From NCBI GenBank assembly GCA_032718475.1, contig JAUCBJ010002851.1, positions 1 to 34,781 of the forward strand: a DNA stretch of 34,781 nucleotides, written 5' to 3'. The notes beneath the pieces are model-generated. The model had not been told where the DNA came from, did no database searches, and saw only the letters and a program-made list of their open reading frames with translations. The translations under genes were made by a program, and so were the position numbers. Positions 1 to 34,781 of the stretch are shown piece by piece. Within the stretch, counting starts at the first letter, position 1. Each line of letters starts with the position of its first letter. This DNA comes from Nemertoderma westbladi. Its lineage: Eukaryota > Animalia > Xenacoelomorpha.

Positions 1-3000
1 TACTTACATTCCTGGCTTCGTAACTTTTCCATCTCTCCACTACTTACATTCCTGGCTTCGTAACTTTACCATCTCTCCACTACTTACATTCCTGGCTTCG
101 TAACTTTTCCATCTCCCCACTACTTACATTCCTGGCTTCGTAACTTTTCCATCTCCCCACTACTTACATTCCTGGCTTTGTAACTTGTCCATCTCTCCAC
201 TACTTACATTCCTGGCTTCGTAACTTTTCCATCTGTCCACTACTTACATTCCTGCCTTCGTAACTTTTCCATCTCTCCACTACTTACATTCCTGGCTTCG
301 TAACTTTTCCATCTCTCCACTACTTACATTCCTGGCTTCGTAACTTTTCCATCTCCCCACTACTTACATTCCCGGCTTCGTAACTTTTCCATCTGTCCAC
401 TACTTACATTCCTGGCTTCGTAACTTTTCCATCTGTCCACTACTTACATTCCTGGCTTCGTAACTTATCCATCGGTCCACTACTTACATTCCTGGCTTCG
501 TAACTTTTCCATCTGTCCACTACTTACATTCCTGGCTTCGTAACTTGTCCATCTCCCCACTACTTACATTCCTGGCTTCGTAACTTTTCCATCTCCCCAC
601 TACTTACATTCCTGGCTTCGTAACTTTTCCATCTCTCCACTACTTACATTCCTGGCTTCGTAACTTTTCCATCTCTCCACTACATACATTCCTGGCTTCG
701 TAACTTTTCCATCTCCCCACTACTTACATTCCTGGCTTCGTAACTTTTCCATCTGTCCACTACTTACATTCCTGGCATCGTAACTTTTCCATCTCCCCAC
801 TACTTACATTCCTGGCTTCGTAACTTTTCCATCTCCCCACTACTTACATTCCTGGCTTCGTAACTTTTCCATCTCCCCACTACTTACATTCCCGGCTTCG
901 TAACTTTTCCATCTGTCCACTACTTACATTCCTGGCTTCGTAACTTTTCCATCTGTCCACTACTTACATTCCTGGCTTCGTAACTTTTCCATCGGTCCAC
1001 TACTTACATTCCTGGCTTCGTAACTTTTCCATCTGTCCACTACTTACATTCCTGGCTTCGTAACTTGTCCATCTCCCCACTACTTACATTCCTGGCTTCG
1101 TAACTTTTCCATCTCCCCACTACTTACATTCCTGGCTTCGTAACTTTTCCATCTCTCCACTACTTACATTCCTGGCTTCGTAACTTTTCCATCTCTCCAC
1201 TACTTACATTCCTGGCTTCGTAACTTTTCCATCTCCCCACTACTTACATTCCTGGCTTCGTAACTTTTCCATCTGTCCACTACTTACATTCCTGGCTTCG
1301 TAACTTTTCCATCTGTCCACTACTTACATTCCTGGCTTCGTAACTTTTCCATCTCCCCACTACTTACATTCCTGGCTTCGTAACTTTTCCATCTCTCCAC
1401 TACTTACATTCCTGGCTTCGTAACTTTACCATCTCTCCACTACTTACATTCCTGGCTTCGTAACTTTTCCATCTCTCCACTACTTACATTCCTGGCTTCG
1501 TAACTTTTCCATCTCCCCACTACTTACATTCCTGGCTTCGTAACTTTTCCATCTCTCCACTACTTACATTCCTGGCTTCGTAACTTTTCCATCTCCCCAC
1601 TACTTACATTCCCGGCTTCGTAACTTTTCCATCTCCCCACTACTTACATTCCTGGCTTCGTAACTTTTCCATCTGTCCACTACTTACATTCCCGGCTTCG
1701 TAACTTTTCCATCTGTCCACTACTTACATTCCTGGCTTCGTAACTTTTCCATCTGTCCACTACTTACATTCCTGGCTTCGTAACTTTTCCATCTGTCCAC
1801 TACTTACATTCCTGGCTTCGTAACTTTTCCATCTCTCCACTACTTACATTCCTGGCTTCGTAACTTTTCCATCTCCCCACTACTTACATTCCCGGCTTAG
1901 TAACTTTACCATCTCCCCACTACTTCCATTCCTGGCTTCGTAACTTTTCCATCTCTCCACTACTTACATTCCCGGCTTCGTAACTTTTCCATCTGTCCAC
2001 TACTTACATTCCTGGCTTCGTAACTTTTCCATCTGTCCACTACTTACATTCCTGGCTTCGTAACTTTTCCATCTGTCCACTACTTACATTCCTGGCTTCG
2101 TAACTTTTCCATCTGTCCACTACTTACATTCCTGGCTTCGTAACTTTTCCATCTCTCCACTACTTACATTCCTGGCTTCGTAACTTTTCCATCTCTCCAC
2201 TACTTACATTCCTGGCTTCGTAACTTGTCCATCTCCCCACTACTTACATTCCTGGCTTCGTAACTTTTCCATCTCTCCACTACTTACATTCCTGGCTTCG
2301 TAACTTTTCCATCTCCCCACTACTTACATTCCTGGCTTCGTAACTTTTCCATCTCTCCACTACTTACATTCCTGGCTTCGTAACTTTTCCATCTCCCCAC
2401 TACTTACATTCCTGGCTTCGTAACTTTTCCATCTCCCCACTACTTACATTCCTGGCTTCGTAACTTTTCCATCTCCCCACTACTTACATTCCTGGCTTCG
2501 TAACTTTTCCATCTCTCCACTACTTACATTCCTGGCTTCGTAACTTTTCCATCTCCCCACTACTTACATTCCTGGCTTCGTAACTTTTCCATCTCCCCAC
2601 TACTTACATTCCTGGCTTCGTAACTTTTCCATCTCTCCACTACTTACATTCCTGGCTTCGTAACTTTTCCATCTCCCCACTACTTACATTCCTGGCTTCG
2701 TAACTTTTCCATCTCTCCACTACTTACATTCCTGGCTTCGTAACTTTTCCATCTCCCCACTACTTACATTCCTGGCTTCGTAACTTTTCCATCTCCCCAC
2801 TACTTACATTCCTGGCTTCGTAACTTTTCCATCTCCCCACTACTTACATTCCTGGCTTCGTAACTTTTCCATCTCCCCACTACTTACATTCCTGGCTTCG
2901 TAACTTTTCCATCTGTCCACTACTTACATTCCTGGCTTCGTAACTTTTCCATCTCCCCACTACTTACATTCCTGGCTTCGTAACTTTTCCATCTGTCCAC

Positions 3001-6000
3001 TACTTACATTCCTGGCTTCGTAACTTTTCCATCTCTCCACTACTTACATTCCTGGCTTCGTAACTTTTCCATCTGTCCACTACTTACATTCCTGGCTTCG
3101 TAACTTTTCCATCTCCCCACTACTTACATTCCTGGCTTCGTAACTTTTCCATCTGTCCACTACTTACATTCCTGGCTTCGTAACTTTTCCATCTCCCCAC
3201 TACTTACATTCCTGGCTTCGTAACTTTTCCATCTCCCCACTACTTACATTCCTGGCTTCGTAACTTTTCCATCTGTCCACTACTTACATTCCTGGCTTCG
3301 TAACTTTACCATCTCTCCACTACTTACATTCCTGGCTTCGTAACTTTTCCATCTCCCCACTACTTACATTCCTGGCTTCGTAACTTTTCCATCTCCCCAC
3401 TACTTACATTCCTGGCTTCGTAACTTTTCCATCTCTCCACTACTTACATTCCTGGCTTCGTAACTTTTCCATCTCCCCACTACTTACATTCCTGGCTTCG
3501 TAACTTTTCCATCTCCCCACTACTTACATTCCTGGCTTCGTAACTTTTCCATCTCCCCACTACTTACATTCCTGGCTTCGTAACTTTTCCATCTCCCCAC
3601 TACTTACATTCCTGGCTTCGTAACTTTTCCATCTCCCCACTACTTACATTCCTGGCTTCGTAACTTTTCCATCTCCCCACTACTTACATTCCTGGCTTCG
3701 TAACTTTTCCATCTGTCCACTACTTACATTCCTGGCTTCGTAACTTTTCCATCTCCCCACTACTTACATTCCTGGCTTCGTAACTTTTCCATCTCCCCAC
3801 TACTTACATTCCTGGCTTCGTAACTTTTCCATCTCCCCACTACTTACATTCCTGGCTTCGTAACTTTTCCATCTCCCCACTACTTACATTCCTGGCTTCG
3901 TAACTTTTCCATCTCCCCACTACTTACATTCCTGGCTTCGTAACTTTTCCATCTCCCCACTACTTACATTCCTGGCTTCGTAACTTTTCCATCTGTCCAC
4001 TACTTACATTCCTGGCTTCGTAACTTTTCCATCTCCCCACTACTTACATTCCTGGCTTCGTAACTTTTCCATCTCCCCACTACTTACATTCCTGGCTTCG
4101 TAACTTTTCCATCTCCCCACTACTTACATTCCTGGCTTCGTAACTTTTCCATCTCCCCACTACTTACATTCCTGGCTTCGTAACTTTTCCATCTCCCCAC
4201 TACTTACATTCCTGGCTTCGTAACTTTTCCATCTCTCCACTACTTACATTCCTGGCTTCGTAACTTTTCCATCTGTCCACTACTTACATTCCTGGCTTCG
4301 TAACTTTTCCATCTCCCCACTACTTACATTCCTGGCTTCGTAACTTTTCCATCTCCCCACTACTTACATTCCTGGCTTCGTAACTTTTCCATCTCCCCAC
4401 TACTTACATTCCTGGCTTCGTAACTTTTCCATCTCCCCACTACTTACATTCCTGGCTTCGTAACTTTTCCATCTGTCCACTACTTACATTCCTGGCTTCG
4501 TAACTTTTCCATCTCCCCACTACTTACATTCCTGGCTTCGTAACTTTTCCATCTCCCCACTACTTACATTCCTGGCTTCGTAACTTTTCCATCTCCCCAC
4601 TACTTACATTCCTGGCTTCGTAACTTTTCCATCTGTCCACTACTTACATTCCTGGCTTCGTAACTTTTCCATCTCCCCACTACTTACATTCCTGGCTTCG
4701 TAACTTTTCCATCTCCCCACTACTTACATTCCTGGCTTCGTAACTTTTCCATCTCCCCACTACTTACATTCCTGGCTTCGTAACTTTTCCATCTCCCCAC
4801 TACTTACATTCCTGGCTTCGTAACTTTTCCATCTGTCCACTACTTACATTCCTGGCTTCGTAACTTTTCCATCTCCCCACTACTTACATTCCTGGCTTCG
4901 TAACTTTTCCATCTCCCCACTACTTACATTCCTGGCTTCGTAACTTTTCCATCTCCCCACTACTTACATTCCTGGCTTCGTAACTTTTCCATCTCCCCAC
5001 TACTTACATTCCTGGCTTCGTAACTTTTCCATCTGTCCACTACTTACATTCCTGGCTTCGTAACTTTTCCATCTCCCCACTACTTACATTCCTGGCTTCG
5101 TAACTTTTCCATCTCCCCACTACTTACATTCCTGGCTTCGTAACTTTTCCATCTCCCCACTACTTACATTCCTGGCTTCGTAACTTTTCCATCTCCCCAC
5201 TACTTACATTCCTGGCTTCGTAACTTTTCCATCTCCCCACTACTTCCACTCCCGACTTCGTAACTTTTCCATCTGTCCACTACTTACATTCCTGGCTTCG
5301 TAACTTTTCCATCTCCCCACTACTTACATTCCTGGCTTCGTAACTTTTCCATCTCCCCACTACTTACATTCCTGGCTTCGTAACTTTTCCATCTCTCCAC
5401 TACTTACATTCCTGGCTTCGTAACTTTTCCATCTCCCCACTACTTACATTCCTGGCTTCGTAACTTTTCCATCTCCCCACTACTTACATTCCTGGCTTCG
5501 TAACTTTTCCATCTCCCCACTACTTACATTCCTGGCTTCGTAACTTTTCCATCTCTCCACTACTTACATTCCTGGCTTCGTAACTTTTCCATCTGTCCAC
5601 TACTTACATTCCTGGCTTCGTAACTTTTCCATCTCCCCACTACTTACATTCCTGGCTTCGTAACTTTTCCATCTCCCCACTACTTACATTCCTGGCTTCG
5701 TAACTTTTCCATCTCTCCACTACTTACATTCCTGGCTTCGTAACTTTTCCATCTCCCCACTACTTACATTCCTGGCTTCGTAACTTTTCCATCTCCCCAC
5801 TACTTACATTCCTGGCTTCGTAACTTTTCCATCTGTCCACTACTTACATTCCTGGCTTCGTAACTTTTCCATCTCCCCACTACTTACATTCCTGGCTTCG
5901 TAACTTTTCCATCTCCCCACTACTTACATTCCTGGCTTCGTAACTTTTCCATCTCCCCACTACTTACATTCCTGGCTTCGTAACTTTACCATCTCTCCAC

Positions 6001-9000
6001 TACTTACATTCCTGGCTTCGTAACTTTTCCATCTCCCCACTACTTACATTCCTGGCTTCGTAACTTTTCCATCTCCCCACTACTTACATTCCTGGCTTCG
6101 TAACTTTTCCATCTGTCCACTACTTACATTCCTGGCTTCGTAACTTTTCCATCTCCCCACTACTTACATTCCTGGCTTCGTAACTTTTCCATCTCCCCAC
6201 TACTTACATTCCTGGCTTCGTAACTTTTCCATCTCTCCACTACTTACATTCCTGGCTTCGTAACTTTTCCATCTCTCCACTACTTACATTCCTGGCTTCG
6301 TAACTTTTCCATCTGTCCACTACTTACATTCCTGGCTTCGTAACTTTTCCATCTCCCCACTACTTACATTCCTGGCTTCGTAACTTTTCCATCTCCCCAC
6401 TACTTACATTCCTGGCTTCGTAACTTTTCCATCTCTCCACTACTTACATTCCTGGCTTCGTAACTTTTCCATCTCCCCACTACTTACATTCCTGGCTTCG
6501 TAACTTTTCCATCTCTCCACTACTTACATTCCTGGCTTCGTAACTTTTCCATCTCCCCACTACTTACATTCCTGGCTTCGTAACTTTTCCATCTCCCCAC
6601 TACTTACATTCCTGGCTTCGTAACTTTTCCATCTCCCCACTACTTACATTCCTGGCTTCGTAACTTTTCCATCTCTCCACTACTTACATTCCTGGCTTCG
6701 TAACTTTTCCATCTGTCCACTACTTCCATTCCTGGCTTCGTAACTTTTCCATCTGTCCACTACTTACATTCCTGCCTTCGTAACTTTTCCATCTCCCCAC
6801 TACTTACATTCCTGGCTTCGTAACTTTTCCATCTGTCCACTACTTACATTCCTGGCTTCGTAACTTTACCATCTCTCCACTACTTACATTCCTGGCTTCG
6901 TAACTTTTCCATCTCTCCACTACTTACATTCCTGGCTTCGTAACTTTTCCATCTGTCCACTACTTACATTCCTGACTTCGTAACTTTTCCATCTCTCCAC
7001 TACTTACATTCCTGGCTTCGTAACTTTTCCATCTCCCCACTACTTACATTCCTGGCTTCGTAACTTTTCCATCTCCCCACTACTTACATTCCTGACTTCG
7101 TAACTTTTCCATCTCTCCACTACTTACATTCCTGGCTTCGTAACTTTTCCATCTCCCCACTACTTACATTCCTGACTTCGTAACTTTTCCATCTCTCCAC
7201 TACTTACATTCCTGGCTTCGTAACTTTTCCATCTCCCCACTACTTACATTCCTGGCTTCGTAACTTTTCCATCTCCCCACTACTTACATTCCTGGCTTCG
7301 TAACTTTTCCATCTCTCCACTACTTACATTCCTGGCTTCGTAACTTTTCCATCTCTCCACTACTTACATTCCTGGCTTCGTAACTTTTCCATCTCTCCAC
7401 TACTTACATTCCTGACTTCGTAACTTTTCCATCTCTCCACTACTTACATTCCTGGCTTCGTAACTTTTCCATCTCCCCACTACTTACATTCCTGGCTTCG
7501 TAACTTTTCCATCTCCCCACTACTTACATTCCTGGCTTCGTAACTTTTCCATCTCCCCACTACTTACATTCCTGGCTTCGTAACTTTTCCATCTCTCCAC
7601 TACTTACATTCCTGGCTTCGTAACTTTTCCATCTCCCCACTACTTACATTCCTGGCTTCGTAACTTTTCCATCTCCCCACTACTTACATTCCTGGCTTCG
7701 TAACATTTCCATCTCCCCACTACTTACATTCCTGGCTTCGTAACTTTTCCATCTGTCCACTACTTACATTCCTGACTTCGTAACTTTTCCATCTCTCCAC
7801 TACTTACATTCCTGGCTTCGTAACTTTTCCATCTCCCCACTACTTACATTCCTGGCTTCGTAACTTTTCCATCTCCCCACTACTTACATTCCTGGCTTCG
7901 TAACTTTTCCATCTCCCCACTACTTACATTCCTGGCTTCGTAACTTTTCCATTTCCCCACTACTTACATTCCTGGCTTCGTAACTTTTCCATCTGTCCAC
8001 TACTTACATTCCTGGCTTCGTAACTTTTCCATCTCTCCACTACTTACATTCCTGGCTTCGTAACTTTACCATCTCTCCACTACTTACATTCCTGGCTTCG
8101 TAACTTTTCCATCTCCCCACTACTTACATTCCTGGCTTCGTAACTTTTCCATCTCCCCACTACTTACATTCCTGGCTTTGTAACTTTTCCATCTCCCCAC
8201 TACTTACATTCCTGGCTTTGTAACTTTTCCATCCCCACTACTTACATTCCTGGCTTCGTAACTTTTCCATCTCCCCACTACTTACATTCCTGGCTTTGTA
8301 ACTTTTCCATCTCCCCACTACTTACATTCCTGGCTTCGTAACTTTTCCATCTCCCCACTACTTACATTCCTGGCTTCGTAACTTTTCCATCTCCCCACTA
8401 CTTACATTCCTGGCTTCGTAACTTTTCCATCTCCCCACTACTTACATTCCCGGCTTCGTAACTTTTCCATCTCCCCACTACTTACATTCCTGGCTTTGTA
8501 ACTTTTCCATCTCCCCACTACTTACATTCCTGGCTTTGTAACTTTTCCATCTCCCCACTACTTACATTCCTGGCTTTGTAACTTTTCCATCTCCCCACTA
8601 CTTACATTCCTGGCTTTGTAACTTTTCCATCTCCCCACTACTTACATTCCTGGCTTCGTAACTTTTCCATCTCCCCACTACTTACATTCCTGGCTTCGTA
8701 ACTTTTCCATCTCCCCACTACTTACATTCCTGGCTTCGTAACTTTTCCATCTCCCCACTACTTACATTCCCGGCTTCGTAACTTTTCCATCTCCCCACTA
8801 CTTACATTCCTGGCTTCGTAACTTTTCCATCTGTCCACTACTTACATTCCTGACTTCGTAACTTTTCCATCTCTCCACTACTTACATTCCTGGCTTCGTA
8901 ACTTTACCATCTCTCCACTACTTACATTCCTGGCTTCGTAACTTTACCATCTCTCCACTACTTACATTCCTGGCTTCGTAACTTTTCCATCTCCCCACTA

Positions 9001-12000
9001 CTTACATTCCTGGCTTCGTAACTTTACCATCTCTCCACTACTTACATTCCTGGCTTCGTAACTTTTCCATCTCCCCACTACTTACATTCCTGGCTTCGTA
9101 ACTTTTCCATCTGTCCACTACTTACATTCCTGACTTCGTAACTTTTCCATCTCTCCACTACTTACATTCCTGGCTTCGTAACTTTTCCATCTCCCCACTA
9201 CTTACATTCCTGGCTTCGTAACTTTTCCATCTCCCCACTACTTACATTCCTGGCTTCGTAACTTTTCCATCTCCCCACTACTTACATTCCTGGCTTCGTA
9301 ACTTTTCCATTTCCCCACTACTTACATTCCTGGCTTCGTAACTTTTCCATCTGTCCACTACTTACATTCCTGGCTTCGTAACTTTTCCATCTCTCCACTA
9401 CTTACATTCCTGGCTTCGTAACTTTACCATCTCTCCACTACTTACATTCCTGGCTTCGTAACTTTTCCATCTCCCCACTACTTACATTCCTGGCTTCGTA
9501 ACTTTTCCATCTCCCCACTACTTACATTCCTGGCTTTGTAACTTTTCCATCTCCCCACTACTTACATTCCTGGCTTTGTAACTTTTCCATCTCCCCACTA
9601 CTTACATTCCTGGCTTCGTAACTTTTCCATCTCCCCACTACTTACATTCCTGGCTTTGTAACTTTTCCATCTCCCCACTACTTACATTCCTGGCTTCGTA
9701 ACTTTTCCATCTCCCCACTACTTACATTCCTGGCTTCGTAACTTTTCCATCTCCCCACTACTTACATTCCCGGCTTCGTAACTTTTCCATCTCCCCACTA
9801 CTTACATTCCTGGCTTCGTAACTTTTCCATCTGTCCACTACTTACATTCCTGACTTCGTAACTTTTCCATCTCTCCACTACTTACATTCCTGGCTTCGTA
9901 ACTTTACCATCTCTCCACTACTTACATTCCTGGCTTCGTAACTTTACCATCTCTCCACTACTTACATTCCTGGCTTCGTAACTTTTCCATCTCCCCACTA
10001 CTTACATTCCTGGCTTCGTAACTTTTCCATCTCCCCACTACTTACATTCCTGGCTTTGTAACTTTTCCATCTCCCCACTACTTACATTCCTGGCTTTGTA
10101 ACTTTTCCATCTCCCCACTACTTACATTCCTGGCTTCGTAACTTTTCCATCTCCCCACTACTTACATTCCTGGCTTTGTAACTTTTCCATCTCCCCACTA
10201 CTTACATTCCTGGCTTCGTAACTTTTCCATCTCCCCACTACTTACATTCCTGGCTTCGTAACTTTTCCATCTCCCCACTACTTACATTCCCGGCTTCGTA
10301 ACTTTTCCATCTCCCCACTACTTACATTCCTGGCTTCGTAACTTTTCCATCTGTCCACTACTTACATTCCTGACTTCGTAACTTTTCCATCTCTCCACTA
10401 CTTACATTCCTGGCTTCGTAACTTTTCCATCTGTCCACTACTTACATTCCCGGCTTCGTCACTTTTCCATCTCCCCACTACTTACATTCCTGGCTTCGTA
10501 ACTTTTCCATCTCTCCACTACTTACATTCCTGGCTTCGTAACTTTTCCATCTCCCCACTACTTACATTCCTGGCTTCGTAACTTTTCCATCTCCCCACTA
10601 CTTACATTCCTGGCTTCGTAACTTTTCCATCTCCCCACTACTTACATTCCTGGCTTCGTAACTTTTCCATCTCCCCACTACTTACATTCCTGGCTTCGTA
10701 ACTTTACCATCTCTCCACTACTTACATTCCTGGCTTCGTAACTTTTCCATCTCCCCACTACTTACATTCCTGGCTTCGTAACTTTTCCATCTCCCCACTA
10801 GTTACATTCCTGGCTTCGTAACTTTTCCATCTGTCCACTACTTACATTCCTGGCTTCGTAACTTTTCCATCTCCCCACTACTTACATTCCTGGCTTCGTA
10901 ACTTTTCCATCTCCCCACTACTTACATTCCTGGCTTCGTAACTTTTCCATCTCTCCACTACTTACATTCCTGGCTTCGTAACTTTTCCATCTCTCCACTA
11001 CTTACATTCCTGGCTTCGTAACTTTTCCATCTGTCCACTACTTACATTCCTGACTTCGTAACTTTTCCATCTCTCCACTACTTACATTCCTGGCTTCGTA
11101 ACTTTTCCATCTGTCCACTACTTACATTCCTGACTTCGTAACTTTTCCATCTCTCCACTACTTACATTCCTGGCTTCGTAACTTTTCCATCTGTCCACTA
11201 CTTACATTCCTGACTTCGTAACTTTTCCATCTCTCCACTACTTACATTCCTGGCTTCGTAACTTTTCCATCTGTCCACTACTTACATTCCTGACTTCGTA
11301 ACTTTTCCATCTCCCCACTACTTACATTCCTGGCTTCGTAACTTTTCCATCTCTCCACTACTTACATTCCTGGCTTCGTAACTTTTCCATCTGTCCACTA
11401 CTTACATTCCTGCCTTCGTAACTTTTCCATCTCTCCACTACTTACATTCCTGGCTTCGTAACTTTTCCATCTCCCCACTACTTACATTCCTGGCTTCGTA
11501 ACTTTTCCATCTGTCCACTACTTCCATTCCCGACTTCGTAACTTTTCCATCTGTCCACTACTTACATTCCTGGCTTCATAACTTTTCCATCTGTCCACTA
11601 CTTCCATTCCCGACTTCGTAACTTTTCCATCTGTCCACTACTTCCATTCCCGACTTCGTAACTTTTCCATCTGTCCACTACTTCCATTCCCGACTTCGTA
11701 ACTTTTCCATCTGTCCACTACTTACATTCCTGGCTTCGTAACTTTTCCATCTCCCCACTACTTACATTCCTGGCTTCGTAACTTTTCCATCTCCCCACTA
11801 CTTACATTCCTGGCTTCGTAACTTTTCCATCTGTCCACTACTTCCATTCCCGACTTCGTAACTTTTCCATCTCTCCACTACTTACATTCCTGGCTTCGTA
11901 ACTTTTCCATCTCTCCACTACTTACATTCCTGGCTTCGTAACTTTTCCATCTGTCCACTACTTACATTCCTGGCTTCGTAACTTTTCCATCTCCCCACTA

Positions 12001-15000
12001 CTTACATTCCTGCCTTCGTAACTTTTCCATCTCCCCACTACTTACATTCCTGGCTTCGTAACTTTTCCATCTGTCCACTACTTACATTCCTGGCTTCTCA
12101 ACTTTTCCATCTGTCCACTACTTCCATTCCCGACTTCGTAACTTTTCCATCTGTCCACTACTTACATTCCTGGCTTCATAACTTTTCCATCTCTCCACTA
12201 CTTACATTCCCGACTTCGTAACTTTTCCATCTGTCCACTACTTACATTCCTGGCTTCATAACTTTTCCATCTGTCCACTACTTACATTCCTGGCTTCGTA
12301 ACTTTTCCATCTGTCCACTACTTACATTCCTGGCTTCATAACTTTTCCATCTGTCCACTACTTACATTCCTGGCTTCGTAACTTTTCCATCTGTCCACTA
12401 CTTACATTCCTGGCTTCGTAACTTTTCCATCTGTCCACTACTTATATTCCTGGCTTCGTAACTTTTCCATCTGTCCACTACTTACATTCCTGGCTTCGTA
12501 ACTTTTCCATTTCCCCACTACTTACATTCCTGGCTTCTCAACTTTTCCATCTGTCCACTACTTCCATTCCCGACTTCGTAACTTTTCCATCTGTCCACTA
12601 CTTACATTCCTGGCTTCATAACTTTTCCATCTCTCCACTACTTACATTCCCGACTTCGTAACTTTTCCATCTGTCCACTACTTACATTCCTGGCTTCATA
12701 ACTTTTCCATCTGTCCACTACTTACATTCCTGGCTTCGTAACTTTTCCATTTCCCCACTACTTACATTCCTGGCTTCTCAACTTTTCCATCTGTCCACTA
12801 CTTCCACTCCCGACTTCGTAACTTTTCCATCTTTCCACTACTTACATTCCTGGCTTCGTAACTTTTCCATCTGTCCACTACTTACATTCCTGGCTTCGTA
12901 ACTTTACCATCTCCCCACTACTTACATTCCCGGCTTCGTAACTTTTCCATCTCTCCACTACTTACATTCCTGGTTTCGTAACTTTTCCATCTCCCCACTA
13001 CTTACATTCCTGGCTTCGTAACTTTTCCATCTGTCCACTACTTACATTCCTGGCTTCGTAACTTTTCCATCTCCCCACTACTTACATTCCTGGCTTCGTA
13101 ACTTTTCCATCTCCCCACTACTTACATTCCTGGCTTCGTAACTTTTCCATCTCCCCACTACTTACATTCCTGGCTTCGTAACTTTACCATCTCTCCACTA
13201 CTTACATTCCTGGCTTCGTAACTTTTCCTTCTGTCCACTACTTACATTCCTGGCTTCGTAACTTTTCCATCTCCGCACTACTTACATTCCTGGCTTCGTA
13301 ACTTTTCCATCTGTCCACTACTTACATTCCTGGCTTCGTAACTTTTCCATCTCCCCACTACTTACATTCCTGGCTTCGTAACTTTACCATCTCTCCACTA
13401 CTTACATTCCTGGCTTCGTAACTTTTCCTTCTGTCCACTACTTACATTCCTGGCTTCGTAACTTTTCCATCTCCGCACTACTTACATTCCTGGCTTCGTA
13501 ACTTTTCCATCTGTCCACTACTTACATTCCTGGCTTCGTAACTTTTCCATCTCCCCACTACTTACATTCCTGGCTTCGTAACTTTTCCATCTCCCCACTA
13601 CTTACATTCCTGGCTTCGTAACTTTACCATCTCTCCACTACTTACATTCCTGGCTTCGTAACTTTTCCTTCTGTCCACTACTTACATTCCTGGCTTCGTA
13701 ACTTTTCCATCTCCGCACTACTTACATTCCTGGCTTCGTAACTTTTCCATCTGTCCACTACTTACATTCCTGGCTTCGTAACTTTTCCATCTCCCCACTA
13801 CTTACATTCCTGGCTTCGTAACTTTACCATCTCTCCACTACTTACATTCCTGGCTTCGTAACTTTTCCTTCTGTCCACTACTTACATTCCTGGCTTCGTA
13901 ACTTTTCCATCTCCGCACTACTTACATTCCTGGCTTCGTAACTTTTCCATTTCCCCACTACTTACATTCCTGGCTTCGCAACTTTTCCATCTCCCCACTA
14001 CTTACATTCCCGACTTCGTAACTTTTCCATCTGTCCACTACTTACATTCCTGGCTTCGTAACTTTTCCATCTGTCCACTACTTACATTCCTGGCTTCATA
14101 ACTTTTCCATCTGTCCACTACTTACATTCCTGGCTTCGTAACTTTTCCATTTCCCCACTACTTACATTCCTGGCTTCTCAACTTTTCCATCTGTCCACTA
14201 CTTCCACTCCCGACTTCGTAACTTTTCCATCTTTCCACTACTTACATTCCTGGCTTCGTAACTTTACCATCTCTCCACTACTTACATTCCTGGCTTCATA
14301 ACTTTTCCATCTGTCCACTACTTACATTCCTGGCTTCGTAACTTTTCCATTTCCCCACTACTTACATTCCTGGCTTCTCAACTTTTCCATCTGTCCACTA
14401 CTTCCACTCCCGACTTCGTAACTTTTCCATCTTTCCACTACTTACATTCCTGGCTTCGTAACTTTACCATCTCTCCACTACTTACATTCCTGGCTTCGTA
14501 ACTTTTCCATCTCTCCACTACTTACATTCCTGGCTTCGTAACTTTTCCATCTCCCCACTACTTACATTCCTGGCTTCGTAACTTTTCCATCTCCCCACTA
14601 CTTACATTCCTGGCTTCGTAACTTTTCCATCTCTCCACTACTTACATTCCTGGCTTCGTAACTTTTCCATCTGTCCACTACTTACATTCCTGGCTTCGTA
14701 ACTTTTCCATTTCCCCACTACTTACATTCCTGGCTTCGTAACTTTTCCATCTCTCCACTACTTACATTCCTGGCTTCGTAACTTTTCCATCTCTCCACTA
14801 CTTACATTCCTGGCTTCGTAACTTTTCCATCTCCCCACTACTTACATTCCTGGCTTCGTAACTTTTCCATCTCCCCACTACTTACATTCCTGGCTTCGTA
14901 ACTTTTCCATCTCTCCACTACTTACATTCCTGGCTTCGTAACTTTTCCATCTGTCCACTACTTACATTCCTGGCTTCGTAACTTTTCCATTTCCCCACTA

Positions 15001-17918
15001 CTTACATTCCTGGCTTCTCAACTTTTCCATCTGTCCACTACTTCCACTCCCGACTTCGTAACTTTTCCATCTTTCCACTACTTACATTTCTGGCTTCGTA
15101 ACTTTACCATCTCTCCACTACTTACATTCCTGGCTTCGTAACTTTTCCATTTCCCCACTACTTACATTCCTGGCTTCGTAACTTTTCCATCTCCCCACTA
15201 CTTACATTCCTGGCTTCGTAACTTTTCCATCTCCCCACTACTTACATTCCTGGCTTCGTAACTTTTCCATCTCCCCACTACTTACATTCCTGGCTTCGTA
15301 ACTTTTCCATCTCTCCACTACTTACATTCCTGGCTTCGTAACTTTTCCATTTCCCCACTACTTACATTCCTGGCTTCGCAACTTTTCCATCTCCCCACTA
15401 CTTACATTCCTGGCTTCGTAACTTTTCCATCTCCCCACTACTTACATTCCTGGCTTCGTAACTTTTCCATCTCCCCACTACTTACATTCCTGGCTTCGTA
15501 ACTTTTCCATCTCTCCACTACTTACATTCCTGGCTTCGTAACTTTTCCATTTCCCCACTACTTACATTCCTGGCTTCGCAACTTTTCCATCTCTCCACTA
15601 CTTACATTCCTGGCTTCGTAACTTTTCCATCTGTCCACTACTTACATTCCTGGCTTCGTAACTTTTCCATCTCTCCACTACTTACATTCCTGGCTTCGTA
15701 ACTTTTCCATCTCTCCACTACTTACATTCCTGGCTTAGTAACTTTTCCATTTCCCCACTACTTACATTCCTGGTTTCGTAACTTTTCCATCTCCCCACTA
15801 CTTACATTCCTGGCTTCGTAACTTTTCCATCTCTCCACTACTTACATTCCTGGCTTAGTAACTTTTCCATTTCCCCACTACTTACATTCCTGGCTTCGCA
15901 ACTTTTCCATCTCCCCACTACTTACATTCCTGGCTTCGTAACTTTTCCATCTCCCCACTACTTACATTCCTGGCTTCGTAACTTTTCCATCTCCCCACTA
16001 CTTACATTCCTGGCTTCGTAACTTTTCCATCTCTCCACTACTTACATTCCTGGCTTCGTAACTTTTCCATTTCCCCACTACTTACATTCCTGGCTTCGTA
16101 ACTTTTCCATCTCCCCACTACTTACATTCCTGGCTTCGCAACTTTTCCATCTCCCCACTACTTACATTCCTGGCTTCGTAACTTTTCCATCTCCCCACTA
16201 CTTACATTCCTGGCTTCGTAACTTTTCCATCTCTCCACTACTTACATTCCTGGCTTCGTAACTTTTCCATTTCCCCACTACTTACATTCCTGGCTTCGCA
16301 ACTTTTCCATCTCCCCACTACTTACATTCCTGGCTTCGTAACTTTTCCATCTGTCCACTACTTACATTCCTGGCTTCGTAACTTTTCCATTTCCCCACTA
16401 CTTACATTCCTGGCTTCTCAACTTTTCCATCTGTCCACTACTTACATTCCTGGCTTCGTAACTTTTCCATCTCTCCACTACTTACATTCCCGGCTTCGTA
16501 ACTTTTCCATCTCTCCACTACTTACATTCCCGGCTTCGTAACTTGTCCATCTCCCCACTACTTACATTCCTGGCTTCGTAACTTTTCCATCTGTCCACTA
16601 CTTACATTCCTGGCTTCGTAACTTTTCCATCTCCCCACTACTTACATTCCTGGCTTCGTAACTTTTCCATCTCTCCACTACTTACATTCCTGGCTTCGTA
16701 ACTTTTCCATCTCCCCACTACTTACATTCCTGGCTTCGTAACTTTTCCATCTCCCCACTACTTACATTCCTGGCTTCGTAACTTTTCCATCTCCCCACTA
16801 CTTACATTCCTGGCTTCGTAACTTTTCCATCTCCCCACTACTTACATTCCTGGCTTCGTAACTTTTCCATCTCTCCACTACTTACATTCCTGGCTTCGTA
16901 ACTTTTCCATCTCCCCACTACTTACATTCCTGGCTTCGTAACTTTTCCATCTCTCCACTACTTACATTCCTGGCTTCGTAACTTTTCCATTTCCCCACTA
17001 CTTACATTCCTGGCTTCGCAACTTTTCCATCTCCCCACTACTTACATTCCTGGCTTCGTAACTTTTCCATCTCCCCACTACTTACATTCCTGGCTTCGTA
17101 ACTTTTCCATCTCCCCACTACTTACATTCCTGGCTTTGTAACTTTTCCATCTGTCCACTACTTACATTCCTGGCTTCGTAACTTTTCCATCTCCCCACTA
17201 CTTACATTCCTGGCTTCGTAACTTTTCCATCTGTCCACTACTTACATTCCTGGCTTCGTAACTTTTCCATCTCCCCACTACTTACATTCCTGGCTTCGTA
17301 ACTTTTCCATCTCTCCACTACTTACATTCCTGGCTTCGTAACTTTTCCATCTCCCCACTACTTACATTCCTGGCTTCGTAACTTTTCCATCTCCCCACTA
17401 CTTACATTCCTGGCTTCGTAACTTTTCCATCTCTCCACTACTTACATTCCTGGCTTCGTAACTTTTCCATCTCCCCACTACTTACATTCCTGGCTTCGTA
17501 ACTTTTCCATCTCCCCACTACTTACATTCCTGGCTTCGTAACTTTTCCATCTGTCCACTACTTACATTCCTGGCTTCGTAACTTTTCCATCTCCCCACTA
17601 CTTACATTCCTGGCTTCGTAACTTTTCCATCTCTCCACTACTTACATTCCTGGCTTCGTAACTTTTCCATCTCCCCACTACTTACATTCCTGGCTTCGTA
17701 ACTTTTCCATCTCCCCACTACTTACATTCCTGGCTTCGTAACTTTTCCATCTCTCCACTACTTACATTCCTGGCTTCGTAACTTTTCCATCTCTCCACTA
17801 CTTACATTCCTGGCTTCGTAACTTTTCCATCTCCCCACTACTTACATTCCTGGCTTCGTAACTTTTCCATCTCCCCACTACTTACATTCCTGGCTTCGTA
17901 ACTTTTCCATCTGTCCAC
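1..17918. repeat. 40-bp tandem satellite, ~448 copies, running off the left edge of the window; unit TACTTACATTCCTGGCTTCGTAACTTTTCCATCT(CC/CT/GT)CCAC
   Basis: Exact 40-bp periodicity seen directly. One 38-bp monomer at 8201-8238 shifts the register by 2. The + strand is about 75% pyrimidine. One hypervariable dinucleotide plus scattered SNPs. Confidence 0.99.
17880..17885 (-). promoter_or_regulatory. 5' splice donor GTAAGT of the VPS52 exon, reiterated in most satellite units
   Basis: Minus strand reads ...CAGGAAT|GTAAGT, matching the consensus intronic hexamer. Confidence 0.85.
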
Positions 17919-18063
17919 TTTCTACCATCAACTCGGCCTCTTTTACGAATGTTATTAAACCCCCGAAACAAGGAGCAATCACCTCATCTACGTACTCTTG
18001 ACTTCTCGCCGATAAAAGTTGTTTAAATGTTTCTGACTCTTTGCTCTCATCTGCTGTCCGTTC
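17886..18063 (-). CDS. VPS52: Internal coding exon (178 bp, phase 0 in, phase 1 out) of vacuolar protein sorting 52, a GARP/EARP subunit
   Basis: Manual minus-strand translation ERTADESKESETFKQLLSARSQEYVDEVIAPCFGGLITFVKEAELMVESGQMEKLRSQE aligns without gaps to remembered human VPS52 ERAADDSKEVESFQQLLNARTQEFIEELLSPPFGGLVAFVKEAEALIERGQAERLRGEE. It is bounded by acceptor ...cattttctgatttcAG and donor GTAAGT. Confidence 0.9.
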
Positions 18064-18087
18064 CTGAAATCAGAAAATGTTGTCAAC
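18064..18087 (-). promoter_or_regulatory. 3' splice acceptor with pyrimidine tract and candidate branch point
   Basis: Minus strand GTTGACAACATTTTCTGATTTCAG|GAA lies exactly where VPS52 similarity begins. Confidence 0.8.
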
Positions 18088-18829
18088 TTCTGTAAATCTT
18101 GTAAAGTTTACATCATTAGAAATAAATTGTTATTTAATTGGACATTTTGTGGCAATTAACACTTGTTTTGGAATAACCGTAAATTTGTCGATTTCAGTTT
18201 TGTGAGATAGTGTAAGTTTGTGAGGCAACAATATAAAGGGCATGGTATTTTGAACCTAAACGCACACAGCTGTATAAATGAAGGATTACTGTATATTTTT
18301 CATATATTTTATATTTAAACAACTCTTGATTTACGAATTCAATACATACATATACCGTAGCAAAAAGAGCCTTTCCGATGTGTTTTTTGCCTTTTCTGAG
18401 ATTATAGTCAGGTTTCTGCCAAGTTATATACATTATTTATCAGTAACATAAACATAATATAATGTTTTTGTTATTATTATTATTATATTGATATTGGTTT
18501 GGTTTATATGTATCTTGCTGAGATCAAAGGCCAACAGATCATAATTATTATCATCTAAAACCATTAGTTAGAAAACCAACAGCAAACAAGTATAATAGTG
18601 TGAACCATTAAATCAGATTAATTATACTGAGCAATTCAATGTGAACAACTAATTAAACGAATTTAGGTTAATTAATATCGATATTCCTCGTTTTACCTCT
18701 AGTGAGATTAGTGATATTCTTAATTACGTAGCTACGTGCTAATTCCATTCAATATATATTTTTATCTTTATTTTCTTATACATACATCCATATATGCGCT
18801 GTGCATAGCCTTTAATTACGTTGTACCGT

Positions 18830-21543
18830 GTCCGTATGGCAAAAAACGTGCTCGTGGGGAAGGAGGGACTGCAATCTTTATCAGGGATAATATATCTCAA
18901 AATTGTGCACCACTTACCTGCAACTCAGACCGTATATCTGGGGCAATTGTCCGAAATCTCACCATGAATGATTTTGCCATAATAAACATATACATGCCTG
19001 CCGATTGCAAAAGAACAGAAGATAAAGAACTATATCTTATGGAAACTGGCAACTTATCAGCACTATTAGAAGAATGTATAAGCATTAATATACCTACAAT
19101 TGTTCTTGGTGACATAAATGGCACTCTAAGCTTTAACAGTGAGATGCATCCAAGAGGCGAAGATAAACCTTCAGATTTCGGGAAAATATTTGAAAATAAC
19201 ATTATGAGGAAATACGACCTCACAGCAGCTGATCTTAGTCACTGCGGCCATGGAGCAAAACATACGTATAGCTTTAAAGACAAGGAAGGAGACATAATAC
19301 GGACAAGTTATATAGATCATATCAATATTCCGAATACCTGGGCAGGCAAGATAATGCACACAAAGGTCCTGAGGGAAGATAAGCACAACATGTCTGATCA
19401 CAGACCAGTGATGGCTAACCTATTACTTGAGAGGCTCATTGAGAAAAGTGAAGCGTTACCAAATCGAAAAAAAGCTAAGGAGATCAGATATCATTTTCGA
19501 AGTGCGACTGAAACCCAAATCCTGCACTACAAAAGGAACAAATAGGAGCCGAACTTACTCTCATCAGTAATGGAAATCAGTCAGTGGATGAGAAGACAGA
19601 TTCGCTTATAACTATAATCACTGAGGCAGCAACTCAAAATATTCCACATTCTTATGTAAAATACAAAAAACATGTGAAACACACAATAAACACAACAAAG
19701 TTCTTGAAAAGATCATACGGAGATCATATAAGATCATTAGTTGACACAAACAAAAGGAACACAAAACAATTCTGGCGGAAAGTAAAACCAAAGGACCACA
19801 AACAAATTTACACCAAAAACCAGCTCTCACGAATTTACAGACAAACAGTACAGCACTTCAAAACAGGAAGAGATGACACTGACAATGATGCCAATCCTAT
19901 CACAGAAACAGGTACACCAGCGCAACCGCAAGATGTCACCCCAGAACAGATTGAAGCATATATAAACAAGCTTAATAGAGGAAAAGCCAGCGATATTTTC
20001 AATCTGAATGCAGAAACACTGTTACACGCTTCTTCAAGACCTTTGCATGATTTCATCGCAAATTTATTCAACAAAATAAACAGAGATGGTATCTGCCCAA
20101 TCGCGTTTACTACAAGCATCACCACTCCTGTTCCAAAACCTCAAAAACGCAAGACAATTGTTCCACAACCGATTTCAGTACGTAATATAAGCGTCATAGT
20201 GACAATCGCAAAGCTGTGGGAAATCTCACTACTAAGCGAACTTTCTGCACTGCAAGCCCATGATCTGCAATTCGGGTACAGACCAAAAATTGGGTCAGAA
20301 ATGGCACATCAATCTGTAACCAGCATCATCAACAAATTCACAAACAGCAATTCGCAGATGTACATTTTAAGCCTCGACTTATCCTCTGCATTCGACACTG
20401 TATCATACCCAAAACTATTCAGGAAAATACGATCTGCCGGGGCCTGTACTAGTCATTGATGCACTTGAAATGTACTACAACAACTCGAATGCCTACCTAA
20501 AAAGTTGCGGTTATCTCTTTACCGACAATTTTAGTTTACAACAGGGGGACCGGCAAGGTGGCGTCCTATCTCCGCTCCTCTTCAACTTTTACCTATATGA
20601 TTTAATTAGGGACATTAGCTCTTCGGAACTTGGATCACATATAGGTACAGAATCATATAGCATAATAAGCTATGCTGATGACATTATCCTGTTGGCGAAC
20701 ATTAAACCAGACCTGACCGCAATGCTGGAAAAGGCATCGAAATACTTTGAGGACCACAACCTGCTACTGAATACAAAGAAATGCCATTTCTTGTCTATAG
20801 AAACAAATGGAAAATCGAACACACATGATTATCTGGAATCAGAAGTTTTGACTCTACGTTCAGAAGCATCCTGCATGTATATGGGGCTGCCACTGCCAGC
20901 AGAACCCCATAAGATGGAGAACATTGCTAAAGCAAAAGTATGGCAGAATGTCTCTCAACTAAATCACCGCGGTCTAGCAGTAGATGAAGCATCACTAGAC
21001 ATAACAAGTCTGATATGGCGAGCCGTCTGCCTACCGAGCATATCATATGGCGCTGCCACATTATCTACTGAAACGATTTCTAATGTCAGCAAAACCTGCA
21101 GAAAGGCAATGAGGTCAATAGCTCGACAAGATAATCGTCTTCCAACTAAAGTACTTTATGGACTTTTCGAAGTCGACACCGAACTATATCTAAGGGCGAA
21201 ACAACTGAGATTGATCAACCAATTATTCAACTCCGGCAACAGGAAGATAACCTACCTATTCACAAATATTTTATGTGAACATTGTAGCGGCCGTAGTAGT
21301 GCACTTTTCAAATCGTATGTCGAAGGAGCATGGATCTACGACTTTCCAAGTCTATGCTCTTTAGCCATCCACGAGTACTCAATAAGGCAGTGCGTAAAAA
21401 TGGCTGAGAAGTCCTCATGCCAAAATATGACACCAGGGGAAAACTTCACTCTAGCCTATTGCAACGCCCTTCTTAACAAGGTTGACCAACATGCCCGTAC
21501 CCGTATTGAATTAGTTCAAAACTATCTTGATCCTTCAAGATAA
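18830..21543 (+). pseudogene. Endonuclease/reverse transcriptase ORF broken into three pieces (18736-19545, 19584-20459, 20470-21543)
   Basis: The frame changes near 19531-19545 and near 20450-20460, and the pieces are collinear in APE-linker-RT order. The N-terminal APE motifs are missing. Confidence 0.9.
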
Positions 21544-21711
21544 ATCATTAACATACTGTATCTTATGTATATAAATATCATAATCATGATGACTGTATGT
21601 ACTTATCGTTTGCCATATATATTTTATCAAATTTGTCAAATAAAGCCGCCGGGGCCTAAAACCGGATGTTGAATGGCACGCGTACGAAATTGAATTAAAT
21701 AAATAAATAAA
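18830..21711 (+). mobile_element. 5'-truncated, degenerate non-LTR retrotransposon (APE + RT; clade uncertain, RTE-X/L2-like)
   Basis: APE motifs GGTAI, NIYMP, LGDING, SYIDHI, SDH. RT motifs QFGY, LDLSSAFD, QGGVLSPLLF, YADD. Short 3' UTR with a GC-rich stem-loop (~21645-21677) and a (TAAA)4 tail at 21696-21711. The 5' boundary is approximate. Confidence 0.92.
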
Positions 21712-21890
21712 CGGAAATCCGATTATTATACTGTTGGAAAATCAAAATAATTGATTTGTGATACGATTTTAATATTCTTTAATGGTTTAATTGTAAACAC
21801 GAGAAAAGGAACAGCGAAGAAGTATTTTAGTGATTTCGGTATAGAACCTAAAAACTACCGCAAACAGAAACAATATCAATAAAATATTAA

Positions 21891-23279
21891 ATGGATCAGA
21901 AAATGGTAACAGCTTACAGCAACGTCCTATTTGGTAGTGAAGACATGTTAGGGACAGGGTCGTATGTTAACTACTTCTGTTTGTTAGTTATTCTTTGCAT
22001 TTCGACATGGTGGATATGGAACAGGCGAATGAGGAAACAAGACCCCCAAATTCAGAGAGCAATACCTGCAGATGAGAAGAACCAAAGTTCCCCACCCAAC
22101 AGTATTAGTTCCCCACCCCACAGTAATAGTTCCCCACCCCACAGTAATAGTTCCACATCCCACAGTAATAGTTTCTGTGAAATTTTCGAGTCAGTTGTTT
22201 CCTTGACGACACAAGTGAAACAATCCCTGACGAAATTAGAATGTCGTAGGGTAGAACTGCTTAACTTCAAGGTTGGTAAACTAAAGGAATGCGAAGAGGC
22301 ACTAGAGACCGCGTTAGAGAGTAGCAATATTACAACGATCGTAGAAGGGTCAAAGGGAACATCTCAACTCAATGAGTCGCTATTAGGTAAGGGCCGTAAG
22401 GTGAAGGGGTTAGGAGGAATTACATCGATAGAATGCATATTCCAACAGTTGCCCCGGTTACACGAAGACAATAAAGAGATTCTTTTTGAAACTGAACGAT
22501 TACTAAGGGAGGAAAGAGAGAGTGATGACTGTATGAGGAGTTTATTTGGCGCCATGTGGACTCCCGTTCCATCGGAAATAATAACTGAAGGTTTCATAGC
22601 AGAGAGCAAAAAGTACCAGCGGCTCCTTGAAAATGCCAGAAATGCTGACGCTAAAGTAGCAGCTAAGTACGTGTGCACTCGAGATGCCATAGCGATTCTC
22701 AGTAAACCTGATGACAAACTCCTTGAATGCTTATCACCTAGTGACTGGATGTCTGAGTTGCGTCAACTAATGGCCAGTATTGAAAAGTTGAAACGCTTCA
22801 TGAAAAGTTTAGAGAATGAAATACAGGTGGAGTTACAGAATTCCCCCATTACACCAGTGTTCACTGCTGGTCTTTCTGGAGTAGATGACACCATATCCGA
22901 AGTCGCAACAGACAACAATGCTGTTGTGGATTCTCTTAAAGCTGTTTACAACCGTCTGCAGAAAAAGTTTGTGTATTCTGTTAGGAAACATGAGATTCTC
23001 ATAGAGAAACTACATTGTGCAAATCAGTTGTTAGTTAATGAAAACCCAAGCTGGAGGACCCAAGGCTGGAGGGCTTACACACGTGAGGAGATGATAAAGA
23101 AATTGGATGTCGCCTTCAATGTATATATGGAGTTGATCTGTAATCTAAAAGAAGGGAGGAAGTTCTACAATGACGTCAACCAACTGCTGCTAAAATACAG
23201 ATGTAATGTTACGGATTTCTGTTTGGTGAGAAAACTCATTAAAGATGAGTTGAAGAGGGAAATAAATCAGAACAAGTGA
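21891..23279 (+). CDS. Intronless ALIX/PDCD6IP-like V-domain protein with an N-terminal transmembrane segment; no Bro1 domain and no Pro-rich tail
   Basis: Uninterrupted 462-aa ORF. Residues ~96-462 match the remembered ALIX V-domain (FCEIFESVV~FTDLFEKMV; LPRLHEDNKEILFETERLL~LPELLQRNREILDESLRLL; NLKEGRKFYNDV~NLKEGTKFYNEL). Hydrophobic YFCLLVILCISTWWIW is followed by basic RRMRK. Confidence 0.88.
   Translation: MDQKMVTAYSNVLFGSEDMLGTGSYVNYFCLLVILCISTWWIWNRRMRKQDPQIQRAIPADEKNQSSPPNSISSPPHSNSSPPHSNSSTSHSNSFCEIFESVVSLTTQVKQSLTKLECRRVELLNFKVGKLKECEEALETALESSNITTIVEGSKGTSQLNESLLGKGRKVKGLGGITSIECIFQQLPRLHEDNKEILFETERLLREERESDDCMRSLFGAMWTPVPSEIITEGFIAESKKYQRLLENARNADAKVAAKYVCTRDAIAILSKPDDKLLECLSPSDWMSELRQLMASIEKLKRFMKSLENEIQVELQNSPITPVFTAGLSGVDDTISEVATDNNAVVDSLKAVYNRLQKKFVYSVRKHEILIEKLHCANQLLVNENPSWRTQGWRAYTREEMIKKLDVAFNVYMELICNLKEGRKFYNDVNQLLLKYRCNVTDFCLVRKLIKDELKREINQNK
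22086..22173 (+). repeat. In-frame 21-bp coding repeat, ~4 copies (SSPPHSN linker)
   Basis: AGTTCCCCACCCCACAGTAAT units start at 22086, 22107, 22128 and 22149. Confidence 0.95.
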
Positions 23280-24132
23280 AAATTGATTTATATGTTAATT
23301 ATTAAATAATGATTTATATTTGAAGATTTAAGAAAAAAACTACATCGGCTCCAAAGACCCCACAAATCGCTGAAATAGCTAGTAATATCATACTGTAAAC
23401 ATGTAAATAAAGTGAAAAGGTGAAAACATAAATAAATATAAATAAATCTAAATGTTTTTAATTCAATAATAATTATATTGATTAAAATAAAGTATTGATA
23501 TTTGGCACACATGTATACAATGGGGGAATTATAATTTTCCAAAAATTGTTTCGAAAAATATATTTTTAGATTTAAGATTATAAATTGATGCAATTACTTT
23601 TATTTAAATGTAAAGGTTCCTATATAGATGGACGTTCTGTTCCTTTTTTGCGTAACCGGTTTATGAAACGAATGTATGACCAGAATTTTGATAAATGCTC
23701 ATTCTCAAAAGTTATTTAAAAAAACATACTTTTGGCGAAATATTTGACACATTGCCTTTTGTTTTACATAAATTTGACACTTTTTGTTATATTTCAACTA
23801 GCACAAATAAAAATATAAATAAGTGCAATAATAATACATTAAATATTCAAAAATGGGTAATACACATATAAACCACTGTACAATATGATAACATGAGTAT
23901 TTTACTTTATATGACTGCTACTTTACTCTATGGGATTTTGGGCTACTCTACCTAATTTTGATGCCGTTTGTCCGTTCAGTGTCTGAATGCCAGTCGTGTC
24001 CAGAGCGGGTCCGCTACTACCAAAGCTTTCCGAGTCCGTTCAGGCTCGTAGTTACGCCGGCGACAGAGACGCTAGAGACCGTCGTACACACAGTCCCGAT
24101 AGACAACAGGCACTTAATCAGAGTAAGATGAA

Positions 24133-25100: not shown

Positions 25101-25123
25101 CGCACTACTTATCTTATTTTGTC

Positions 25124-25484
25124 TAGTTTAGTTCCCCATCTCGGTGGGTGTATGATTAAATTAAATTAAAGCATACTACCTAGTATTAGTTTGATTGAAC
25201 ATGCTTAAATATGAAATGAATTACACCGCGCAATTGTAGGTCATACCTATTTACTGATTTAATGTAAATCTTTTATAAAAAAAAAGTTTTTATAAAACGT
25301 TCCAGATTATAATATGAAACTGTCAATACGGTATTACATTTGTATTATTATATACATTGTCGCTCCATTCATTTAAATTATGTTTATTCCTTTATTATTA
25401 CGTCACGTGAACGTGAAGTAAACAAAATTGCACCCTAACACCACGTATGAGTAATTTCAATGAAATGAAATGTAATATAGGTAG
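25124..25484. repeat. Left arm of a ~360-bp inverted duplication
   Basis: Its reverse complement matches 25782-25916 joined to 29311-29538, with a few small indels. Confidence 0.93.
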
Positions 25485-25527
25485 CATAGTACAGTAGTAA
25501 GCATATGCACACTCAGACACTTTTGAG

Positions 25528-25598
25528 TACTGTATAATGTAATAATACAATCACTAATAATGATTCACAATTAAATGCCAGAATGCCAAAGTGCCTTT
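25528..25598 (+). repeat. ~70-bp direct repeat; second copy at 29568-29644
   Basis: Both copies share TACTGTATAATGTA...ATCACTAATAATGATTYACAATTAAATGCCAGAATGCCAAAGTGCCTTT. Confidence 0.9.
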
Positions 25599-25604
25599 GC
25601 CAAA

Positions 25605-25625
25605 CCCCCCCCCCCCCCCCCCCCC
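25605..25625. repeat. Poly-C tract (C21)
   Basis: Seen directly. Confidence 0.9.
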
Positions 25626-30524: not shown

Positions 30525-30682
30525 TTAACCGATCGCCGCGGGTTGTAGAGTGCAGTTGGAGTGGGGTGGGGTGTACCCGAGTGCGGAGTTCGGTTTCAGT
30601 AAAGCTAAGCCATTGTTCTACCACGAAGATATTACTGTATTATTGCAGTATTCTGGTATTAACGTCTTCATTTCTGAGTGTT

Positions 30683-34762: not shown

Positions 34763-34781
34763 GTCTTCTTAATTACCAATT

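Follow-up and report, generated by a model that had tools for sequence, protein, structure and literature searches.

A 40-nt tandem array apparently derived from a VPS52 exon/intron junction in Nemertoderma westbladi

Minisatellites that reiterate a 5′ splice site have been described at several exon/intron junctions. According to the accessible part of one report (PMC1557585), intron 7 of human F7 carries a 37-bp minisatellite of 5–9 copies that includes 4 exonic nt, and minigenes showed that splicing takes the functional donor lying farthest upstream, irrespective of the monomer number. The same text lists other junction repeats in 6-16 (25 pseudo-sites), CBS (15–20), LMNB2 (10–15) and PDGF (16–18), and states that 6-16 and CBS additionally make use of the one or two copies that follow the first (PMC1557585). 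Here we analyse a stretch of 34,781 nucleotides from Nemertoderma westbladi (assembly GCA_032718475.1, contig JAUCBJ010002851.1, positions 1 to 34,781 of the forward strand), referred to as the window. Its first half is occupied by hundreds of 40-nt units, each made of the end of a coding exon and a splice donor, and the exon in question belongs to VPS52, a GARP/EARP tethering subunit.

Two further systems come close to this arrangement. Avian exon stuttering, as presented in the available portion of PMC12954441, concerns 236 chicken introns, with a median exon part of 36 bp, 1–44 exon copies and spans of up to 23,555 bp; its copies are imperfect, loosely ordered and mostly found on dot chromosomes, and high GC content or G-quadruplexes (G4) are the suggested cause. 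The accessible text on human ABCA7 describes in intron 18 a 25-bp variable number tandem repeat (VNTR) whose units begin at the donor GT and whose largest allele has about 427 units over 10.7 kb (PMC5954066; also PMC13747324, likewise from partial text), and retention of a single unit causes a frameshift (PMC5954066).

We consider it very probable that the array of the window is a tandem expansion of the VPS52 exon/intron junction, lying behind a single-copy exon that in the assembled RNA is spliced at the first donor, and that it likely grew neutrally. Tandem Repeats Finder (TRF) recognized positions 1–17919 as one tandem array with a period of 40, 448.0 copies, 96% matches and a score of 32247. 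Parsed on the minus strand, the array resolves into 448 head-to-tail units that represent 47 distinct strings, with a mean identity of 97.1% to the majority unit. Since the array is open at position 1, both 448 copies and 17.9 kb are minimums; its far end and the next VPS52 exon lie outside the window, and the far end was not found among the contigs listed. About 448 tandem copies over 18 kb, with hundreds of near-identical 5′ splice sites, had been announced in an earlier sequence-only reading of this DNA, and these figures are borne out: the donor is intact from −3 to +6 in 431/448 units, has lost its GT in 15 and carries other changes in 2, and every one of units 2–71 possesses a GT. The same reading gave the unit as the last 34 nt of the exon followed by GTAAGT. 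This describes the first unit well, but the string that it quoted is that of only 67/448 copies, the majority type (175/448) differing from this exon-end type at unit positions 6–7. The term satellite that it used is overstated in the heterochromatic or multi-locus sense, only one locus being seen.

The unit is 74% purine, and GC content is about 0.44 in the array and 0.29–0.45 in the flank. No canonical G4 motif was present and hairpin folds, computed without a shuffle control, were weak, so that no hairpin or G-quadruplex driver was seen; no clear microhomology was found at the period-40 boundary. Autocorrelation detected no higher-order period within the array. Outside of it, the window contains no copy of the unit beyond a single 13-nt match, a 32-nt unit pattern gave 0 matches in metagenome contigs, and positions 17000–34781 matched no Rfam family.

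The array abuts a 178-nt exon that is open in frame 0, starting in phase 0 and ending in phase 1. As had been read from the sequence, the terminal unit continues without interruption and in frame into unique exon sequence up to the acceptor at 18064, the exon running from 18063 to 17886. VPS52 had been named as the expected result of a protein search, and this expectation was confirmed by an indirect route, direct peptide searches having failed first. The 59-aa exon peptide alone had no Vps52 match in Pfam, where VPS52 proteins are covered by the models PF04129/PF20655, and gave only a weak match to Sec3_C-term (E 0.06); it had no match in a word-indexed protein search and none among solved structures. 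An Atlas search with the peptide gave a lead only, a Vps52_C cluster at rank 13 with a score of 0.90. A scan of metagenome contigs then supplied two contigs, L001 and L002, that encode the same stretch with 61% identity across all 59 residues; a third match, L003, spanned 26 residues (E 6e-5) and was left out of the comparison. In L001, the upstream exon matches Vps52_C at E 8e-12, while the counterpart of the window exon is, like the window exon itself, without a Vps52 Pfam match. With this counterpart as query, 158 proteins were obtained, and those carrying a name were mostly called VPS52; an unindexed search yielded 137 at an E-value of 0.001 or below, the two sets having several proteins in common. 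Against homologues of at least 600 aa from the set of 158, the peptide aligned without gaps in 76/76 cases, at 42–64% identity and with a median of 82 residues following it; against the 712-aa homologue P0122 the alignment reached E 2e-24. On these homologies, the exon is assigned to VPS52.

The claim that the peptide resembles VPS52 also within the repeated part has to be tempered. Mean identity to the homologues is 0.38 in that part of the exon versus 0.59 in the rest, and the homologues also vary among themselves across this stretch. Nevertheless, four residues encoded by the unit equal the commonest homologue residue, namely G50 (60/76), Q51 (42/76), L55 (53/76) and E59 (74/76).

Two observations bear on the direction of the process. 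Firstly, both L001 and L002 contain the same 178-nt exon, with a phase-0 acceptor, a phase-1 donor and one donor only; their downstream introns measure 358 and 707 nt (counted from the sequence), and no tandem array is present in the L001 contig. The exon and the position of its phase-1 donor are shown to be ancestral by this comparison. Secondly, 338/446 aligned 40-nt units carry a C-to-G change at unit position 7, and the exon-end unit retains the Gln51 codon. The direction is from exon to array because the Gln codon, which is conserved, persists in the exon-end unit and is gone from the majority of copies. As judged from these two comparisons, the array descends from the exon. The two proposals made earlier, an ancestral exon and an array born from its junction, are upheld, and a distant animal has the single-copy junction that the earlier reading had suggested looking for in related species, with one donor and short introns.

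Four sequencing runs contain the flank: X1, X2 and X3, which are DNA, and X4, which is RNA-like and comes from another sample and study. In 3/3 DNA runs the exon and its flank form one contig of flat depth (18, 36.5 and 31.6 for X1, X2 and X3), with no loose ends at the exon edges. The tandem join, in which the path goes back 40, is also present in 3/3 DNA runs, and the repeat was therefore not invented by assembly. X4 is listed as 'DNA?', and was judged to be poly(A) RNA because it covers exons only, shows spliced ends and has, at 31538, a loose end of poly(A). In this run, a contig of 2731 nt at depth 645 lies on 17886–18064 with 0 differences and with loose ends on both sides, 571 nt being 3′ and 1981 nt 5′ of the exon; its length is consistent with a complete VPS52 mRNA. 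Each loose end extends the reading frame, and of the 10 residues read by eye on each side, 8/10 are identical to the neighbouring L001 exon. Accordingly, the mRNA crosses exactly one 34-nt copy and leaves at the first donor. The intron beside the exon is uncovered in X4, which elsewhere displays single-nucleotide polymorphisms relative to the window. That the exon is single-copy and spliced, as anticipated from the sequence, is thereby confirmed at contig level. The contig was also considered as a retrocopy in a DNA run, and this was rejected since X1–X3 are without such loose ends.

X4 has two contigs on 17880–18700, and neither connects unique exon sequence with the intron. The second one, of depth 200, is a loop of 70 nt made of the majority unit; per window copy, this amounts to about 0.14% of the depth of the mRNA, and the loop has no 31-mer in common with the exon. 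It shows that the repeat exists in the X4 individual too. The anatomy of the unit restricts what later donors could do: at most 6/12 pyrimidines precede any AG in the array, and as the unit is without an acceptor, later donors could only lengthen the real exon. The 'extreme splice-site-choice problem' announced from the sequence is overstated, since reiterated donors have precedents in F7 and ABCA7 and the RNA contig takes the first donor. The coordinates of the array, the exon and their signals are given in Table 1.

Table 1. Positions of the tandem array, the VPS52 exon and associated features in the window
Feature	Positions	Strand	Evidence or remark
Tandem array, at least 448 units of 40 nt, each with 34 nt from the exon end and 6 nt of donor	1..17919	-	TRF, unit parse; tandem join in 3/3 DNA runs; open at position 1
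Unit 243, sole indel of the array (2-nt deletion)	8202..8239	-	Unit parse
Units 72–160, containing 12/15 GT-less units (locally amplified variants)	11520..15079	-	
In-frame TAG at the unit 1/unit 2 join	17878..17880	-	Would be met by any transcript reading past the first donor, two codons on
Source unit, first of the array: terminal 34 exonic nt and intron +1..+6	17880..17919	-	
Authentic 5′ splice site GTAAGT, GT starting at 17885	17880..17885	-	Used by the RNA contig (loose end begins 17886); position same in L001, L002
VPS52 coding exon, 178 nt (59 codons + 1 nt; residues 566–624 of the 712-aa homologue P0122)	17886..18063	-	Homologue alignment; RNA contig exactly on exon, loose ends both sides
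3′ splice site: pyrimidine tract (10/12) and AG ending at 18064	18064..18077	-	Sequence; RNA loose end
Putative upstream intron, at least 16.7 kb; transposons and antisense open reading frames within, no other VPS52 exon	18064..34781	-	Profile search; no RNA joint 18064–33300

The distribution of unit variants informs on how the array has evolved. Among rare variants (4–30 copies each), 11/13 are locally clustered at p<0.01. Blocks of 12–13 units are repeated, some of them with 6–7 unit types, while in shuffled arrays the blocks were of 6–9 units in 28/30 cases and of 10 and 12 units once each. Derived alleles number 24 in the 34 exon-derived columns and 4 in the 6 donor columns; donors are thus neither preserved nor purged.

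These data suggest the following scenario. A single 40-nt tandem duplication across the donor would have seeded the array, the exon-end copy being then held by selection on the protein, and growth and turnover would have proceeded in multi-unit blocks, a pattern that is visible in the array, probably by slippage or unequal exchange. At contig level, the mRNA joins the unique exon via exactly one 34-nt copy to the next exon, in frame. The first donor presumably prevails by its place, no other donor lying closer downstream of the sole acceptor, as both F7 and the anatomy of the locus suggest. In transcripts spliced at later donors, a stop would follow two codons after the exon, with a loss of about 82 C-terminal residues, and such transcripts would probably undergo nonsense-mediated decay. 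That the gene tolerates the array is likely due to first-donor choice together with decay. The array is most likely tolerated rather than functional.

Several points weigh against this scenario. L001 and L002 are apparently from one assembly of one distant animal, such that they fix the ancestral state and not the age, and the array is undated. Donor usage is read from one RNA-like sample, at contig level, with its RNA nature inferred. Contigs drop rare isoforms and decay would hide mis-splicing, such that later donors may also be used to a minor extent; the 70-nt loop could correspond to intron RNA, to DNA carry-over or to rare extended exons. X1 and X3 derive from a single sample, and the DNA analysed here may itself stem from X1 and X2. 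Short-read depths also disagree on the size of the array, since repeat 31-mers imply about 70–80 units in X1 versus about 1000–1400 in X2, and the repeat depth of X1 and X3 differs about tenfold despite their single sample. Depth was considered as a measure of copy number and was rejected as unreliable. The depths of the runs indicate a high-copy array, but not its length.

This disagreement leaves some room for a larger family. The 40-mer may have begun here and now be present at other loci too, or the array may be several times longer than in the window, an alternative that we hold to be possible but rather improbable. It would account for repeat 31-mers in X2 being 2.2–3.2 times deeper than 448 units predict, and for an array that is open at position 1. 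However, X1 has only 0.15–0.18 times the prediction, contig depth is no copy number, and no long contig leads from the unit into other unique DNA among the pieces listed. As to the origin of the array, such a family is compatible with expansion from the VPS52 junction. We would put forward only tentatively the strongest form of this idea, a satellite-scale array of at least 40 kb and about 1000 copies or more, perhaps at other loci, born from the end of a housekeeping exon and with its source unit frozen by the protein code. If true, no exon-derived donor array in the literature searched would be larger, and it would provide a dated record of the birth of a satellite, where co-transcriptional first-donor choice and a built-in stop let the gene survive.

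An array with a regulatory role is unlikely. Longer alleles would then divert splicing to later donors or cause skipping of the next exon, lowering VPS52 via decay as in ABCA7, where increasing VNTR length is associated with reduced expression and with more frequent skipping of exon 19 (PMC5954066, accessible text). Every later donor of the array would lead to the same stop, 431/448 donors are intact, those of units 2–71 included in having kept their GT, and the repeat-unit sequence occurs in X4. Yet the donor columns bear no sign of selection, and neither of the two X4 contigs at the junction reads through it. The precedents also argue against tuning by length in the parts of these reports that are available: donor choice in F7 was unchanged by added monomers (PMC1557585), and one-unit retention in ABCA7 did not vary with length (PMC5954066).

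It is very unlikely that we are dealing with a mis-joined exon or an orphan copy of it, with a working, array-free VPS52 elsewhere, or that the length of the array is an assembly artefact. The window does hold no other VPS52 exon, the next one lying outside, and the data are without long reads. Against this, all three DNA runs have the exon and its upstream flank in one contig whose depth is that of single-copy DNA and which shows no loose ends where the exon begins and ends, and the RNA matches the exon without a single difference. Local clustering among 47 unit strings would not be expected from a collapsed or looped assembly. An older satellite that inserted at the exon end, or replaced it, and supplied a new donor might explain the lower homologue identity inside the repeated part, but it can be set aside as extremely improbable because exon length and donor position equal those of the distant animal and because G50, Q51, L55 and E59 match the commonest residue of homologues that themselves vary there.

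On the other side of the exon, no further VPS52 exon was detected: a profile built from 50 of 70 full-length homologues and run against 898 six-frame segments outside the array matched this exon only. From this single match, the upstream intron is predicted to span at least 16.7 kb. It is thus also large, without containing such an array, and long introns are not special at VPS52. An intronless open reading frame (ORF) of 185 aa at 29967–30524 (+) encodes the signal peptidase subunit SPCS3/SPC22 (Pfam E 2.7e-53); in X4 it has a depth of about 4000–6000, with a poly(A) end at 31538. Its product has at most 59% identity to its best matches and about 55% to named animal proteins, which places the animal on a long branch. 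SPCS3 is likely a nested gene, antisense inside the predicted VPS52 intron.

Another intronless ORF, of 462 aa at 21891–23279 (+), matches the ALIX V domain (E 2.5e-51) and has a 21-bp repeat of 4.2 copies near its start; it is possibly a partial retrocopy. Its X2 depth of 14.4, versus 36.5 at the VPS52 exon, suggests presence on a single haplotype. A long interspersed nuclear element (LINE)-like sequence at 18724–21543 (+) shows three overlapping frames with RVT_1 matches, and an X2 contig (depth 21.8) that joins 18835 to 21673 suggests an allele without it. An intact ORF of 759 aa at 26550–28829 (−), with no Pfam match and an X2 depth of about 69, is flanked by inverted repeats (about 25127–25342 with 29306–29534, and 25907–25953 with 29270–29316); it looks like a DNA transposon with a putative transposase. 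A 145-aa ORF at 24230–24667 (+), without a Pfam match and multi-copy by depth, may correspond to the endonuclease end of a Penelope-like element. Finally, a 23-bp tandem repeat of 19.8 copies (91% matches) is located at 33343–33794.

In the features tested, the VPS52 locus is like the F7-type junction minisatellites. In both, the first monomer spans the exon/intron boundary and the donor is reiterated head-to-tail in the intron; in both, the most upstream donor is mainly used, although at VPS52 this is read from the contigs of one RNA-like run and minor later use is possible. The VPS52 array differs by its size, with at least 448 copies compared to 5–9 in F7 and 10–26 in other junction repeats, and by the 34/40 nt of its unit that are coding-derived. 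As opposed to 6-16 and CBS, use of the next copies was not seen here at contig resolution.

The locus also works like avian exon stuttering, in that a coding exon edge and its splice site, with an exon part of 34 nt here, have been copied into the adjacent intron while the exon is intact. It departs from two descriptive features of that system: it has one regular period with very high unit identity and one indel in 448 units, and it lies in a non-avian animal outside any GC-rich or G4 setting, with about ten times more copies. Page 55 of the supplement to the chicken study is headed VPS52 and carries an exon-stuttering track, the intron and copy number being not visible in its text (PMC12954441). 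The same gene may thus have undergone an independent exon-edge amplification in birds. The birth of a satellite from coding DNA, which the sequence-only reading had presented as recorded here, stands as regards the origin, but it is not new, exon-end arrays being found genome-wide in chicken according to the available text (PMC12954441).

With ABCA7, the locus shares hundreds of donor-bearing units directly behind an exon and a premature stop for transcripts using a later donor. Unlike the VPS52 unit, that of ABCA7 contains nothing exonic, and measurements exist for both the length variation of the repeat and its effect on splicing. In the literature covered, subscription journals excepted, neither this locus nor any donor array of exonic origin and comparable size was found to be described, and the accessible part of PMC10078293 contains nothing on reiterated donors. 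The array by itself reveals no new mechanism. It shows that arrays of this type also occur outside the minisatellites of vertebrates and the dot chromosomes of birds, and that hundreds of near-identical copies can sit behind a housekeeping exon while the main mRNA stays correct. It also provides a clean natural case of the first-donor rule, with a copy number about 50 times that of F7, and of array evolution with a known source unit. The kind of array is already known, and what is new here is the scale reached by an exon-derived unit, with about ten times the chicken maximum and a donor count close to that of the longest ABCA7 alleles.

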